Below, one piece after another: positions 46,891 to 53,075 of a DNA stretch of 61,966 nt (the first letter of the stretch is position 1; the number at the start of each line of letters is the position of its first letter). The translations under genes were made by a program, and so were the position numbers. This DNA is from Pyrinomonadales bacterium (lineage in GTDB: Bacteria; Acidobacteriota; Blastocatellia; Pyrinomonadales; Pyrinomonadaceae): positions 1 to 61,966 of the forward strand of contig JBBQUS010000032.1 of assembly GCA_038212235.1 (NCBI GenBank), read 5' to 3'. The notes beneath the pieces were generated by a model, which saw nothing but the letters and a program-made list of their open reading frames with translations, was not told the origin of the DNA and ran no database searches.

Positions 46891-47547
46891 ATGGTTGCCG
46901 TCCTTTCGATTTCCTTCATTGCAATCGCCGTCCTGATCGTTTACACGATTGGGCGGCGACTTTTCTATGACGAGCCGGAAAGCCAAACTCGCTTGCAGCC
47001 GCTTAAACCCGTCACACTCTTTGCCCCCGACGCAAAATTGCTGGCGGAAATCGAACAAGCGGAGCATTACCGGAAAGCTGCGGAAGAAAGCGAAAGAGTA
47101 ATGGCTTGGGCAAGTCTGGTCAAGTTTTCGGAATTGAAGGAAATACCTCTTACTGAAAATAAAGAAATAGCAAATGATTCGCTCGAAATCTTGACCGACC
47201 GCGCCGAATTGAGCGAAGATGTGCTCGCGCTCAGTTCGTTTGTCGTCAACCATAAAACGTTAAATGTAAACCAAAAACTCATCAACAAGTTTCAAATCTG
47301 TTGGGAAAACGCGCCCGATCTGCAAAAGACAACCGAATTTTTCGAACTGGCTCTGCGCGCCGACGACGCCGATTTATTTCAAAGCGTTTTTAACGAATCC
47401 GAGCGATTGATCACAAACGGTAAATTGTCTGATTTGGATTTGAACGAACTTCGCGAATTGGCAGCCAGTCATTTTTGGCTGCTTTCATCAAGCGCCAGAA
47501 TGTCCGGCGCTGGCTTTTGGCTCAAACAAAAGCTTAATTACAGTTAA
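46891..47547 (+). CDS. Hypothetical membrane-anchored protein (218 aa)
   Basis: N-terminal TM helix. No motif recognised. Confidence 0.45.
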   Translation: MVAVLSISFIAIAVLIVYTIGRRLFYDEPESQTRLQPLKPVTLFAPDAKLLAEIEQAEHYRKAAEESERVMAWASLVKFSELKEIPLTENKEIANDSLEILTDRAELSEDVLALSSFVVNHKTLNVNQKLINKFQICWENAPDLQKTTEFFELALRADDADLFQSVFNESERLITNGKLSDLDLNELRELAASHFWLLSSSARMSGAGFWLKQKLNYS

Positions 47548-47575
47548 CAGTCAGCAGTTAGCAGTCAACAGATTT
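47538..47575. repeat. CAGTTAACAG-family heptamer repeats abutting a stop codon
   Basis: ttacagttaacagtcagcagttagcagtcaacag. The TAA stop of the upstream gene lies within the first unit. Confidence 0.85.
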
Positions 47576-47624
47576 AAGTGAAACTTTTGGCTGAAAATGT
47601 TGGCGAAATCAAAGGAAATCATCA

Positions 47625-49835
47625 ATGCAACCTGTCCCGCTTATAATTTTGGGCGTCGTCGCGCTCATCGTTCTGGCAGTCGTCTGGTATATTATCACGC
47701 GCTTTCTCGTTAATGTCGGAGCGCAGGAAGTAGCCATCAAGGAGCGCCGTTACTTTGGTAAAAGAATGCCGCAGGGCCGCGTCGTCGCCACCGAAGGCGA
47801 AGTCGGAATTCAGGCTGATGTGCTCAAACCGGGACTGCATTTTGTCTGGTATCCGGTCGAACAGGTCGTCCGGAAAGTGCCGCTTGTCGAAATCGGCGCG
47901 GACGAGCTCGGCATCATCGAAGCGATTGACGGTGAACCGATGCAGACCGGTTCAATCTTTGCGCCGGACAGAGCGCAAAACGCGCACAATAATTTCCAAG
48001 ACCCGATTGCGTTTATCAAGCAGGGCGGCGTCAAAGGCATTCAACTGCGCACCCTGCCGCCCGGAAAATGGGCGATTCACCCGTATTTGTTTAATGTTTC
48101 GATTGCCAAAGCCACCGTTATTCCGCCCGGAAAAATCGGCGTGGTAACGAGCGCGGACGGCGCGCAGCTCGAACCCGGACGGCTGCACGCGAGCGCCATC
48201 AAAGGTCACAAAAATTTTCAGGACGCCGAAAGTTTTGTTTACAACGGCGGACAGAAAGGGCCGCAGGTCGAAACTCTGACGCCCGGAACATACCGCATTC
48301 ACACGCAGTCAGTCGCGCTTAACGGCGGACAGGAAGCAAAACCCGGTCTTTTTTATGTTCGTCTCTATGACGCCACCGTGATTTCGGAAAATCAAATCGG
48401 GCTGGTCGAAGCTCTCGACGGAGCGCAGCTTGACCCGCGCGATTACGTCGCGCAAGCCGCCACCGGGCACGATAATTTTCAGGACAGCAATACCTTTATC
48501 ACCGGCGGCGGACAGCGCGGCCCGCAAAAAGACATTTTGCTGCCCGGAACTTATTACATCAATCCGCTGATGTTCAAAGTCATTCTCGAGCAGGCAAAAG
48601 AGATCAAACCCGGCGAAGTCGCGGTCATCGTTTCAAACGTCGGTAAAGATCCTTCGGAAGAAATTCGGCGAGAAATGGCCCGAAAAATCCGCGAACGTCT
48701 GGAGCGCGAAGAAGCCGAACAAATGCAAATCGCGGCGGAAAAACTCGACAAGATCGAAGGGGAAAATAATTCGCTCGATGAAATCAAAGCCGAACTGGCG
48801 AGCGGTGATCCGGCTGATAAACGGCTTGACAGCGGGGCACACGAAGCCTACGTCGTACCGGAAGGTTTTCGCGGAATTCAGGAAATGGTGGTCGGGCCCG
48901 GACGCTATTACGTCAACACTTTAGCGGTTTCGCCGATTATTATTCCGACAACCAATCAGACGGTAGAATGGACGGCGGGCGAAGTCGCCAACACCTTTGA
49001 TCCTTTTGAAGTCATTTCAAAAGACGGTTTTACGATGCAATTGGAAGTGCGCGTTGTCTTTCGCGTCAAACCCGAAGACGCGCCGTTTATGGTCGCAAAA
49101 ATCGGCGATGTTTCGCGCCTCATTCAAAACGTCATGCACCCGCTGATTGATTCGATTTTCCGCAACCAGGCGTCTGAATCTTCGGCGATGGCTTACCTGC
49201 AAAACCGTCATGAAGAACAGGAGCGCGCCGAAGCCCGCGTCCGAATGCACCTGTTGAAATATCATGTTGATGTGGTCAACGTTTTGATTTGTCACATTCA
49301 TCTGCCGGAAGAGTTGATGAAAACGCAAACCGAGAAGATTCTCGCTGAACAGCGGCAGGGAATGTACGACGCGCAGCGCGAAGCCGAAATCAAGCGCATC
49401 GAATTAGCCAAGACCAGTTCGCAGGCTGACAATCAGCGCAGTTTAATGGAAGCGACAGTTGGCGTGGAAATCTCCGCTAAACGTTCGGAACAGCGCAAGC
49501 GCGAAGCCGAAGGCGAAGCTTACTACATCAGCGAAACCGGCAAAGCCGAAGCCCAAAAAATGCAGCTCATCGGCGAAGCGCAGGGCGTCGCGTATCGCGA
49601 ACAAGTTAACGCCCTGGGCGCAAACGGTGTTGCCCTCGTTGAAACGCTCAAAGTAATCGGCGAAAAAGGCGTTCGCATCACGCCCGACATTATGGCTTCG
49701 GGCGGCAACGGAGATGGTGGCGGCGGAATCGGAAGTTTGCTGCTTCTCAATTTATTTCGTGACCAAATGAACAAAAACGGCAATGGCAACGGCAACGCCC
49801 AGCCAAACACTGCACCCGTTAACGGCAAAAGCTAG
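47625..49835 (+). CDS. SPFH/band-7 (flotillin-like) membrane protein whose SPFH domain is interrupted by 3-4 tandem repeats of about 90 aa, with a C-terminal Gly/Asn-rich tail
   Basis: N-terminal TM plus SPFH start (EVAIKERRYFGK...PGLHF). Repeats each carry H-x-N-F-Q-D...GG-x-x-G-x-Q...L-x-P-G-x-Y. Coiled coil. SPFH C-terminal half (VVFRVKPEDAPFMVAKIGD...VDVVNVLICHIHLPEEL). Confidence 0.6.
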   Translation: MQPVPLIILGVVALIVLAVVWYIITRFLVNVGAQEVAIKERRYFGKRMPQGRVVATEGEVGIQADVLKPGLHFVWYPVEQVVRKVPLVEIGADELGIIEAIDGEPMQTGSIFAPDRAQNAHNNFQDPIAFIKQGGVKGIQLRTLPPGKWAIHPYLFNVSIAKATVIPPGKIGVVTSADGAQLEPGRLHASAIKGHKNFQDAESFVYNGGQKGPQVETLTPGTYRIHTQSVALNGGQEAKPGLFYVRLYDATVISENQIGLVEALDGAQLDPRDYVAQAATGHDNFQDSNTFITGGGQRGPQKDILLPGTYYINPLMFKVILEQAKEIKPGEVAVIVSNVGKDPSEEIRREMARKIRERLEREEAEQMQIAAEKLDKIEGENNSLDEIKAELASGDPADKRLDSGAHEAYVVPEGFRGIQEMVVGPGRYYVNTLAVSPIIIPTTNQTVEWTAGEVANTFDPFEVISKDGFTMQLEVRVVFRVKPEDAPFMVAKIGDVSRLIQNVMHPLIDSIFRNQASESSAMAYLQNRHEEQERAEARVRMHLLKYHVDVVNVLICHIHLPEELMKTQTEKILAEQRQGMYDAQREAEIKRIELAKTSSQADNQRSLMEATVGVEISAKRSEQRKREAEGEAYYISETGKAEAQKMQLIGEAQGVAYREQVNALGANGVALVETLKVIGEKGVRITPDIMASGGNGDGGGGIGSLLLLNLFRDQMNKNGNGNGNAQPNTAPVNGKS

Positions 49836-51250: not shown

Positions 51251-51493
51251 ATGAAAGCGAAAATTTGCGTAATAATTGGACTGCTAACAGTCATCGCCGG
51301 TTTCATCACCGCCGTTTATTATGCCGACCAAATTATGACTGAAGTCTTGAGAGCGCAGGCGGCGGGAGTTGCCGAACCGAATCTGGACGTCAATGCCGCC
51401 GTTGCGGGCGGTTTGTTTGTCAGCATCGGTTTTGTTTTGGTCATCATCGGGTTAATCAAACTTAAAAGCGAAAAGAAAACGATTCAGCAATGA
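51251..51493 (+). CDS. Small two-TM membrane protein (80 aa)
   Basis: Two hydrophobic helices. 4-nt overlap with the downstream MBL gene. Confidence 0.45.
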   Translation: MKAKICVIIGLLTVIAGFITAVYYADQIMTEVLRAQAAGVAEPNLDVNAAVAGGLFVSIGFVLVIIGLIKLKSEKKTIQQ

Positions 51494-52314
51494 AATTTAC
51501 GGTTTTGGGCAGCGGTTCAACCGGAAACGCCGTTTTGATAACTGCGGGAAAAACAAAGGTGTTAGTTGATGCCGGTTTGAGCGCCAAGGAAATTGTGCGC
51601 CGCATTGCCGAAGTCGGCGAAGACATCGCGGCGCTGGACGCAATTCTGATTACCCATGAACACTCCGATCACGTCGGCGGTTTGCGGGTTCTCTTAAAAA
51701 GCGTCGGCTGTCCGATTTTTCTTTCGGGAGCGACGCTCGAAGCCTATCTTTTTGAAAAACGCCAGGTTAAGCCCGACGAAGGCGTCAAGCGCACCGATGC
51801 CATCAAAGGCCGTGTGGTTGAAATCGAATCGAGCAAAGATTTTTGTATCGGCGAAATTGATTTTGAACCGTTTTCAATTCCGCACGACGCAGCGGATAAT
51901 TTTGGTTTTGTCGCAAAACAAGCGGGCGTCAGAATTGCCGCGCTCACCGATTTCGGCCACATTACGACGCTCATTTCGCAAAAAATGCGCGGCTGCGAAG
52001 CAATTATTGTCGAATCAAATCACAATCTGGCAATGCTCAAAACCTGTCCGGTTTATTCGTGGGATTTGAAACAGCGGATTTCCTCGCGCACCGGACATCT
52101 CTCAAATGAAGATTTGGCGGTTTGGCTGACTAACGAGTTTGACGGCGCGGCGCGGCGAATTGTTTTAACGCATCTCTCGCAGCGCGCCAACGAACCGCAT
52201 TTAGCTAAATTAACCGCCGAAGCCGCTTTGCGCGAGCGCTCGCCGCTTTTCAAAACGGAAACCAAGGTAACTATTTCGCATCACAAAAATCCGACCGAGT
52301 GGATAGAATTTTAA
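51490..52314 (+). CDS. MBL-fold metallo-hydrolase (YycJ-like)
   Basis: LITHEHSDHVGG motif. 274 aa. Confidence 0.75.
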   Translation: MKFTVLGSGSTGNAVLITAGKTKVLVDAGLSAKEIVRRIAEVGEDIAALDAILITHEHSDHVGGLRVLLKSVGCPIFLSGATLEAYLFEKRQVKPDEGVKRTDAIKGRVVEIESSKDFCIGEIDFEPFSIPHDAADNFGFVAKQAGVRIAALTDFGHITTLISQKMRGCEAIIVESNHNLAMLKTCPVYSWDLKQRISSRTGHLSNEDLAVWLTNEFDGAARRIVLTHLSQRANEPHLAKLTAEAALRERSPLFKTETKVTISHHKNPTEWIEF

Positions 52315-52334: not shown

Positions 52335-53075
52335 CTACCGCCGCGTCATTATATTTCCAGCCTGCGGGGAAGTTCCGATGGCAAAAACTTTAACCAGCGC
52401 GAGACCGGCGACAAATCCTCCGATGTGCGCCATGTAAGCGACGCCGCCCGTGCCGGTTGGCGTCATGTAACCTTGGATGGCTTGATAGACAATCCACAGC
52501 CCAAGCGCGACAAACGCCGGAACCTGCACAATGCTGTAAAAAATAATCGCGTGGACGCTGCGGCGCGGGAAAAGCAGCAAATAACCACCGAGAACTCCGG
52601 AAATCGCGCCCGATGCTCCCAGCGTCGGAATTACCGAATTGTGGTCAGAGAGGATTTGCGCTAACGCCGCAATCACACCGCATAAAAGATAAAAAACCAG
52701 ATAACGAAAATGCCCGAGCCGATCTTCGAGATTGTCCCCGAAAATCCAGAGATACAACATGTTGCCGGCAATGTGCGAAAAACCGGCGTGCATAAACATT
52801 GCAGTCAAAATCGTGCTGTAAACCGGAATCGGCGTTGGTTGGAGCGGAATTCTGGCGATGACATGTCCGGCCAAATCTGTCACCGGAACCATTCCCTGTA
52901 AATCCAAACCTGTCCAAATTTCTTTGGGCACGGCGGCAAACGCGTAAGTAAAAGCGTCGTTTGCGCCGAATCCCTGAAACAAAACGAAAACAATTATGTT
53001 GAGCGCGATAATCGCGTAATTAACATAGGGAAAATTGATGCGATCCGTATTATCGTCGCCAATCGGAAAAAGCAT
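52335..53075 (-). CDS. Rhomboid-family intramembrane serine protease
   Basis: GASGAISGVLG (GxSG) and catalytic His in AGFSHIAGNM. Six TM helices. Confidence 0.8.
   Translation of the reverse strand: MLFPIGDDNTDRINFPYVNYAIIALNIIVFVLFQGFGANDAFTYAFAAVPKEIWTGLDLQGMVPVTDLAGHVIARIPLQPTPIPVYSTILTAMFMHAGFSHIAGNMLYLWIFGDNLEDRLGHFRYLVFYLLCGVIAALAQILSDHNSVIPTLGASGAISGVLGGYLLLFPRRSVHAIIFYSIVQVPAFVALGLWIVYQAIQGYMTPTGTGGVAYMAHIGGFVAGLALVKVFAIGTSPQAGNIMTRR

Follow-up and report, generated by a model that had tools for sequence, protein, structure and literature searches.

A predicted membrane-anchored SPFH protein with a tandem array of vault-like beta modules in a Pyrinomonadales bacterium

Gene and protein layout

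In our study, a 61,966-nucleotide stretch of DNA from a Pyrinomonadales bacterium of soil (GCA_038212235.1, contig JBBQUS010000032.1; the whole stretch is called the window) was analysed. The subject is one gene on its plus strand, at nucleotides 47625–49835, which encodes an SPFH/band-7 protein of 736 amino acids (aa). The protein was found to contain a tandem array of related beta modules between an N-terminal transmembrane (TM) helix and the SPFH core, and models of these modules resembled major vault protein (MVP) repeats. The original prediction for the locus, made from the letters alone, had described an SPFH domain split by a triplicated 90-aa repeat. The gene and its parts are as follows.

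47625–49835, plus strand: whole gene, 736-aa predicted membrane-anchored SPFH protein with vault-like repeat array (list of open reading frames, homologues)
47634–47705, plus strand: N-terminal TM helix, aa 4–27, predicted N-out/C-in (hydropathy, AlphaFold2 model, positive-inside statistics)
47706–47873, plus strand: unit U0, aa 28–83, membrane-proximal beta module without the HxNFQD insert (alignment with the repeats, hhalign)
47874–48113, plus strand: repeat R1, aa 84–163 (shuffle z 22.6 and 22.7 against R2 and R3; hidden Markov model (HMM) match at aa 88–163, 85.8 bits)
48114–48371, plus strand: repeat R2, aa 164–249, with an additional loop of about 12 aa (z 31.3 against R3; repeat HMM 89.3 bits)
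48372–48599, plus strand: repeat R3, aa 250–325 (repeat HMM 90.5 bits; positional orthologue of the last full repeat of distant relatives)
48600–48653, plus strand: strand 1 of unit U4, also strand 1 of the SPFH domain, aa 326–343 (hhalign; AlphaFold2 strand 331–337)
48654–48833, plus strand: charged helical insert, aa 344–403, unusually long in this lineage (composition, AlphaFold2 helices 345–402)
48834–49307, plus strand: remainder of U4 and SPFH alpha/beta core, aa 404–561
49308–49664, plus strand: two long post-core helices, aa 562–626 and 632–680, positioned like CC1/CC2 of SPFH cage proteins
49665–49832, plus strand: C-terminal tail, aa 681–736, with a Gly-rich linker, a short hydrophobic helix (702–717) and an NGNGNGN end (sequence, predicted local distance difference test (pLDDT))

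The open reading frame began with ATG, and a purine-rich ribosome-binding site of the AGGAAA type was present just 5′ of it. A database protein (P0001) was 100% identical to the product; more than 3500 homologues were found, and the nearest named relatives belonged to Pyrinomonadaceae of the Acidobacteriota. The TM helix contained the top Kyte-Doolittle 19-mer of the whole protein (3.1) and was also modelled as a helix at aa 4–27. The repeats contained HxNFQD motifs at aa 121–126, 195–200 and 282–287, GGxxGxQ motifs at aa 134–140, 208–214 and 295–301, and LxPGxY/W motifs at aa 144–149, 218–223 and 305–310. The 60 residues of the charged insert comprised 18 D+E and 12 K+R, with pLDDT of 50–77. 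The spacing occupied by the charged helix was 77 residues in the query and in its closest cluster representative (P0121), and about 30–40 residues in most relatives. The low-complexity NGNGNGN end was found at aa 718–724. The N-terminal TM segment, the charged helical stretch and the GNGNGN-type tail had all been named in the original prediction, and all are in the sequence.

SPFH domain

The protein was correctly placed among SPFH/band-7 proteins by the original prediction. Pfam Band_7 (PF01145, clan CL0433) gave one contiguous match at aa 409–589, covering profile positions 9–169 of 176, with 84.7 bits against a gathering cut-off of 23.6 (E 1.1e-23), and the alpha/beta fold of the SPFH/Band 7 superfamily was present. 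Prohibitin-1 in the Protein Data Bank (PDB) aligned from its own residue 31, just past its membrane anchor, to aa 402–636. The distal region therefore has an N-terminal beta part of its own, and the description of a domain split by the triplicated repeat did not hold. The SPFH domain is truly interrupted only by the 60-aa charged helix at aa 344–403, which lies between its first strand (aa 326–343) and the remainder.

Two family names were tried for the protein; HflK/C was rejected, and flotillin/YqiK membership was not demonstrable. Flotillin/YqiK (COG2268), which is the JGI name of many relatives, gave a best E of 0.2 in a two-sequence BLASTP comparison with YqiK of Escherichia coli K-12, and no Flot domain was found at E <= 1. 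For HflK/HflC no NCBIfam match was found at E <= 1, and the query was predicted to be cytoplasmic, not periplasmic.

Repeated beta module

The repeats were examined by Smith-Waterman alignment against shuffled sequences; self-BLASTP gave the identity match alone. The pairwise scores of R1–R3 were 125–183, against shuffle means of about 25 (z = 22.6, 22.7 and 31.3), and none of 300 shuffles reached these local alignment scores. The three clear repeats with HxNFQD, GGxxGxQ and LxPGxY motifs seen earlier were confirmed by these values. Their length, given earlier as 90 aa, was corrected; the period is 76–86 aa in the query and 74 aa in the family consensus. Five units aligned in register: U0 (aa 28–83), R1 (84–163), R2 (164–249), R3 (250–325) and U4 (326–343 plus 404–446). 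U0 was devoid of the insert of about 25 residues containing HxNFQD that is present in R1–R3. A suspected degenerate fourth copy was located near aa 404–446 (EGFRGIQEMVVGPGRYYVN); the count itself had to be raised to five related units, the N-terminal stretch at aa 28–83 being a copy also. The invariant positions in the unit of 75 aa were G16, F41, G46, G49 and Q51.

A repeat profile was built from 140 diverse repeats of the relatives and used in hhalign. Its match to U0 had a probability of 96.3% (E 1.5e-9), that to the beginning of the Band_7 region one of 97.0%, and that to aa 326–343 plus 404 onwards, over all 74 columns, one of 98.1% (E 8e-14). In many of the relatives, incomplete repeat-HMM matches were also seen at U0 and where the SPFH domain starts. 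These alignments show U0, R1–R3 and the genuine SPFH N-terminus to be paralogous copies of one beta module. This paralogy explains why the N-terminal piece looks like an SPFH start, and the modules, rather than being a foreign insert on an SPFH scaffold, are homologous to the N-terminus of that domain.

Comparison with distant relatives was found to follow the position of a repeat in the array. R1 of the query was nearest to the first repeat of Geomonas-type proteins (49–50% identity), and R3, its last repeat, was nearest to repeat 5 of P0122 and P0277, which is the last full repeat in these Geomonas-type proteins (53–54%). Within the query the repeats were 33–47% identical to one another, below the 49–54% of the cross-phylum positional matches. 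The duplications are therefore old and the tiers are not interchangeable. By these identities, the first and last repeats are positional orthologues across phyla, and differences in copy number seem to fall in the central part of the array.

Predicted fold of the modules

The repeat region (aa 84–330) contained no Pfam or NCBIfam match, PADLOC gave none, and whole-protein scans returned Band_7 only. When 54 isolated repeats were compared with Pfam at E <= 10, scattered single chance matches were obtained, and the repeat profile matched no PDB chain at E <= 10. No domain known from flotillin-family proteins was found in the repeats in Pfam or NCBIfam. With the lack of similarity to YqiK, this bears out the earlier remark that the stretch was not recognised from characterised flotillins, HflK/C or YqiK. 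CshA_repeat and ATP-synt_ab_Xtn matches in many-repeat relatives were rejected; they were summed from sub-threshold scores with zero individually significant stretches.

The full-length AlphaFold2 model, made with a 108-sequence alignment, had a mean pLDDT of 74. The model of aa 28–345 alone had a pLDDT of 85.5 and a predicted template modelling score of 0.77. Each modelled unit was a beta module composed of five strands and a short helix at the FQD motif. Foldseek with the repeat array gave 15 matches at E <= 1e-3, all of them to MVP (mouse, rat, rabbit and human), with a probability of 0.95–1.0. MVP was the top structural match, at about 10% identity in the structural alignment. From these models, the modules very probably have the MVP-repeat fold. 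The predicted arrangement, in which tandem five-stranded domains of this fold lie ahead of an SPFH-type shoulder, is that of the MVP family. The link to MVP is a structural one only; phmmer against the PDB found prohibitin and erlin, and not MVP.

A fragment of the repeat array also gave weak Foldseek matches to SPFH proteins, and these are informative because the fragment lacks the alpha/beta core. Taken with the paralogy seen in sequence, these matches indicate a module that is a multiplied SPFH1 subdomain. That one fold group holds both the N-terminal subdomain of SPFH and the MVP repeat is independently supported by an ECOD-based classification of 2026, in which the N-terminal subdomain of ordinary archaeal SPFH proteins is assigned to the MVP-repeat group (PMC13607799). 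The SPFH part of the query was structurally nearer to prohibitin, HflC and erlin than to MVP, and with the helices 562–626 and 632–680 it aligned over 214–237 residues with SPFH cage subunits. The pLDDT was below 50 at aa 682–706 and 711–736.

Membrane topology

In 172 relatives with a single TM segment, the N-tail ahead of the segment had a median of 3 residues and a mean of 0.28 K+R, and the 15 residues past the hydrophobic core had a mean of 3.2 K+R. More K+R residues were found after than before the TM segment in 169 of the 172. By the positive-inside rule, the part containing the repeats, the SPFH domain and the helices is predicted to be cytoplasmic. Both orientations are known among SPFH proteins, QmcA-type stomatins (QmcA/YbbK) being cytoplasmic and HflK/C periplasmic (PMC2636767).

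Family size, distribution and copy number

When 1.84 billion cluster representatives were scanned exhaustively with HMMER, at least 2249 clusters matched at E <= 1e-3, of which 344 were at E <= 1e-30. The relatives ranged from about 550 to 1800 aa in length, and many matched the repeat region several times. Among 206 complete-looking proteins, the repeat HMM detected 1–13 full units in 205 and partial matches only in the remaining one; a hydrophobic segment preceded the first unit in 189. The named relatives included Geomonas/Geobacter, Syntrophus, Paludibacterium, Chitinilyticum, Gammaproteobacteria, Chitinophagales/Bacteroidota, Bacillota and Ignavibacteria. The family spans many bacterial phyla as well as plasmids and phages. 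Relatives were found on replicons of a plasmid collection from Ralstonia, Rhizobium, Streptomyces, Clostridium perfringens and Novosphingobium. The source annotations of relatives were all generic (SPFH domain-containing, YqiK, HflC or hypothetical).

Relatives with 6–13 units often ended in a VWA domain after the coiled coil (P0124, P0127, P0128, P0142 and P0144). P0166 had four repeat units only and a sub-threshold VWA match. The named many-repeat relatives were both from filamentous cyanobacteria, namely Symploca P0124 (13 units, VWA) and Okeania P0143 (8 units); no VWA was found in the latter. The metagenomic relative P0250 ended in a CHAT protease domain in place of VWA. This suggests that VWA and CHAT serve at the distal end of the assembly as effector or adaptor modules.

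Some relatives are carried by mobile elements. A relative of 691 aa was present on the Ralstonia insidiosa conjugative plasmid pB1901 (locus L086, 5716–7791), directly downstream of a PRTRC system gene cluster, and contained four units, three strong and one weak. In the Vibrio phage vB_VchM_Kuja (Ackermannviridae), Kuja_1010 (locus L087, 2677–4320) encodes a 547-aa 'putative membrane protein' with two full repeat units. Five other Vibrio phages and a 642-kb uncultured phage (LR756502.1, 344114–344710) carried similar genes.

In a set of species-representative genomes, a full-length alignment search confirmed at least 508 stretches. The best 80 of these were from Pyrinomonadaceae, Blastocatellia and other Acidobacteriota, bar two outliers (one Clostridia, one unclassified). 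As close Blastocatellia relatives, the 80 loci inform on synteny and not on phyletic breadth. No prior description of the family, including the SPFH, CHAT and vWA combination, was found in the literature searched, a search that was not exhaustive. Within that literature, a membrane-anchored SPFH protein with vault-like repeats appears to be a combination not described.

Gene neighbourhood

The gene directly upstream of the SPFH gene was conserved.

46891–47547, plus strand: orphan protein of 218 aa carrying a single N-terminal TM helix, a helical domain (predicted cytoplasmic) and a conserved C-terminal SGAGFxLK motif

It was found directly upstream in 62 of the 74 Pyrinomonadaceae/Blastocatellia loci with enough sequence, at about 30–64% identity, and evolves much faster than the SPFH gene. 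The 218-aa protein matched no Pfam or PDB profile and showed no similarity to YqiJ, so that a partner of the NfeD/YqiJ type was not found. No terminator-like site was found on the plus strand between the two genes, which is consistent with co-transcription. The 77-bp spacer (47548–47624) contained a short reiterated CAGT(C/T)AGCAG-like motif (CAGTCAGCAGTTAGCAGTCAACAG). In the Pyrinomonadaceae lineage, the 218-aa membrane protein is the obvious candidate for a partner or client; in other lineages the neighbours of the SPFH gene differ.

The M14 and M16 peptidases, the protein of metallo-beta-lactamase (MBL) fold and the rhomboid of the window were not syntenic. SPFH–rhomboid-protease hubs occur in mitochondria. 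In the window a rhomboid protease gene was present on the minus strand at 52335–53075, about 2.5 kb downstream of the SPFH gene, and 3 of 84 loci contained a rhomboid. The homologue in Geomonas sp. Red32 has a gene encoding a rhomboid with tetratricopeptide repeats (locus L003, 2829–4361) two genes upstream, near an M48 peptidase. The MBL-fold protein (51490–52314, plus strand) gave a sub-threshold match to the anti-Pycsar protein Apyc1 (27.6 bits against a cut-off of 50), and a gene of this type also lies near the SPFH gene in the close relative L001. The first 8000 nucleotides of the window had a GC content of 0.42–0.45, against about 0.48–0.53 in most of the window, and may be a compositionally distinct segment. 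An anti-phage defence role was dropped as a candidate, there being no PADLOC match and no defence-island context in the window.

Proposed mechanism

We consider the protein to be probably a cytoplasm-facing subunit of an SPFH cage in which vault-like tiers add to the height of the wall; the cage would amount to a half-vault bound to the membrane. It would be a single-pass inner-membrane SPFH protein with its large C-terminal part on the cytoplasmic side. The SPFH1 beta module, located after the membrane anchor and before the SPFH core, would have been multiplied in tandem to five copies, and the array would form a rigid rod in which five-stranded modules fold and stack as MVP repeats do. By analogy, lateral assembly of the chains would most likely give a ring-shaped dome at the membrane's cytoplasmic face.

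U0, which follows the TM helix without a linker, would be seated on the membrane like the SPFH1 of prohibitin and erlin. R1–R3 and U4 would form successive rings, and the SPFH core with CC1/CC2 would form the shoulder and roof. We infer that the oligomer would be closed, with the number of tiers (1–13 in relatives) setting the height of the cage. The extra tiers would raise the wall and the membrane would close the half-vault, enclosing a membrane patch and a large lumen in which cargo could lie.

The cage reading is taken because all solved SPFH assemblies and the vault pack their chains side by side. Solved assemblies of HflK/C, flotillin, prohibitin, erlin, stomatin and QmcA form domes on the membrane, and in the vault 39 MVP chains per half stand side by side with their repeat domains as the barrel wall (PMC12624060, PMC13100048). 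Cage formation taken by itself is an argument from analogy, and we lean only slightly towards it.

Several results weigh against this interpretation. Neither Pfam Vault nor MVP_shoulder matched the query (E <= 1), a 13-repeat relative (E <= 0.1) or the 54 single repeats (E <= 10). Against a profile of human MVP R1–R9, whose boundaries we take from the rat vault structure, the repeat profile reached an hhalign probability of 0.2%; the MVP sequence used was identical to the PDB chains. The fold assignment comes from AlphaFold models. The Foldseek TM-scores (structural similarity) to MVP were low, at 0.26–0.38, and the bacterial unit is about 20 residues longer than the MVP repeat (about 74 against 53 aa); low values are expected for a long rod with about 20 extra residues per unit.

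The repeat profile gave no significant match to the single E. coli sequences of YqiK, QmcA, HflK and HflC, and paralogy with SPFH1 is therefore drawn solely from the family's own SPFH N-terminus. The best, non-significant local alignments with QmcA and HflC fell at their SPFH N-termini. The topology is a rule-based prediction, and no conserved operon partner was found outside Pyrinomonadaceae.

Alternative explanations

The model of the original prediction, a canonical SPFH domain with its halves separated by an unrelated triplicated insert, agrees with the resemblance of the N-terminal segment (EVAIKERRYFGK...PGLHF) to an SPFH start and with the lack of Pfam and NCBIfam matches in the repeats. 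It is hardly tenable in view of the contiguous Band_7 match, which starts at profile position 9, and of the prohibitin alignment, in which residue 31 falls at aa 402. The repeats are homologous to both the N-terminal segment and the SPFH N-terminus, so that nothing foreign is inserted, and relatives carry 1–13 units ahead of an intact SPFH domain.

It also appears very improbable that the protein is a true bacterial orthologue of MVP which forms free, closed vault particles. The order of domains (repeats, SPFH-type shoulder, long helix) is that of MVP, MVP is the top structural match of the array, and true MVPs exist in a few bacteria (PMC3762200; bioRxiv 10.1101/872010). Those bacterial MVPs, however, are more than 50% identical to eukaryotic MVP (bioRxiv 10.1101/872010), against about 10% for the query in the structural alignment. 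The family-conserved N-terminal TM helix is absent from MVP, and the halves of a vault are joined through free N-termini (PMC13100048). The lack of Vault and MVP_shoulder matches, the PDB matches to prohibitin and erlin, the likeness of the SPFH part to prohibitin, HflC and erlin, and the two helices after the core, as in membrane SPFH proteins, argue the same way. True MVP identity was accordingly rejected for a protein with a TM anchor and no sequence match, which is not a soluble chain with a free N-terminus.

A signal-anchored extracytoplasmic stalk, adhesin-like or spanning the periplasm, would agree with the summed sub-threshold matches to CshA_repeat (a surface adhesin repeat) in many-repeat relatives, and HflK/C show that SPFH domains can be periplasmic (PMC2636767). 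We regard such a stalk as quite unlikely. The CshA matches contain no individually significant stretch, and single repeats match nothing. The positive-inside rule points the opposite way in 169 of 172 relatives, whose short N-tails have almost no K/R, and in structure the array resembles cytosolic MVP rather than adhesin folds. The VWA and CHAT domains of relatives occur on both sides of membranes and do not discriminate. From vault dimensions, relatives with 13 tiers would be very long for the periplasm.

The modules could instead be MVP-like without a closed cage, in a membrane-tethered rod or an open ring whose tiers act as spacers or bind ligands. In that case a binding site, and not lateral contacts, would be marked by the invariant G, F, GxxGxQ and PGxY, and SPFH1 would have been multiplied independently of MVP, which would account for the likeness. 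This is a possible though less probable arrangement. It would accommodate the strong conservation of the motif positions in every unit, the absence of a sequence link to MVP repeats and the poorly predicted C-terminal cap region (pLDDT below 50 within aa 682–736). HflK/C and prohibitin also have open forms (PMC12624060, PMC13220708). Solved SPFH proteins, on the other hand, all oligomerise laterally through SPFH and CC1 (PMC12624060, PMC13100048). CC1/CC2-like helices are present in the query, and the tier-specific conservation across phyla fits a fixed place in a larger assembly. The membrane-bound half-vault is therefore kept as our preferred interpretation.

Significance

The vault is among the largest and most enigmatic eukaryotic particles, and its origin and function are unsettled. 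A large bacterial family with such a repeat array placed after a membrane anchor and before an SPFH domain would link ordinary membrane SPFH cages to the vault, and one protein would show how such repeats arise from the SPFH N-terminal module. A bolder idea, which we put forward as speculative and rather doubtful, is that the family is the vault's counterpart on the membrane and perhaps similar to the ancestor of the vault. MVP repeats would then have arisen by SPFH1 duplication in an anchored cage protein, and the vault would have lost the anchor. The family would build tall half-vault compartments on the inner membrane, their height set by the number of tiers and, in some lineages, with effector domains (VWA, CHAT) at the cap. 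If this is true, vaults are a derivative in which two half-cages close on each other and not on the membrane.

Membrane-attached compartments much taller than the HflK/C or flotillin domes are predicted, with natural size variants of 1–13 tiers. The question would be experimentally tractable, homologues being carried by the cultured Geomonas, Paludibacterium, Chitinilyticum, Ralstonia, Rhizobium and Clostridium perfringens, as well as by plasmids and Vibrio phages.

Comparison with known systems

MVP domains have been called unique to the vault in recent papers. Prokaryotic homologues of MVP are said to be limited to a few bacteria, at more than 50% identity (bioRxiv 10.1101/872010), and ten Asgard proteins (PMC12962969). 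With MVP (PDB 3GF5, 4V60, 6BP7) the query shares the order of domains and, in the models, five-stranded units; the number of repeats also varies among prokaryotic relatives, with five in Asgard MVP-like proteins (PMC12962969). MVP is soluble and dimerises through its N-terminus, with repeats of about 53 aa and one cap helix, whereas the query has a TM anchor, units of about 74 aa and two CC1/CC2-like helices. The HxNFQD/GGxxGxQ insert in its units also distinguishes them from MVP repeats.

The archaeal 'MVP repeat + SPFH' proteins (PMC13607799) and the Asgard MVP-like proteins (PMC12962969) resemble the query in having an MVP-type module ahead of SPFH. By their descriptions they are set apart from it, with one repeat in proteins of 320–400 aa, or five in ten Asgard proteins. 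The family of the query, which is not named in those two papers, is bacterial, TM-anchored and very widespread, with 1–13 HMM-detected units. The 'giant' flotillins (SPFH2b; Hinderhofer et al., 2009) are likewise oversized (700–1000 aa or more) with an N-terminal anchor; they are enlarged by a C-terminal coiled coil, whereas the query is enlarged by N-terminal beta repeats (PMC2636767).

In common with the membrane SPFH cage proteins, the query has an N-terminal anchor, SPFH1 directly after it, an alpha/beta core and two long helices. Those proteins contain one SPFH1 module, whereas the query is predicted to contain five in tandem and its relatives up to about 14 with flanking units. Unlike them, the query has a 60-aa charged helix within its last module, and it is without an NfeD/YqiJ partner. 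Its predicted orientation towards the cytoplasm is that of QmcA/YbbK (PMC2636767).

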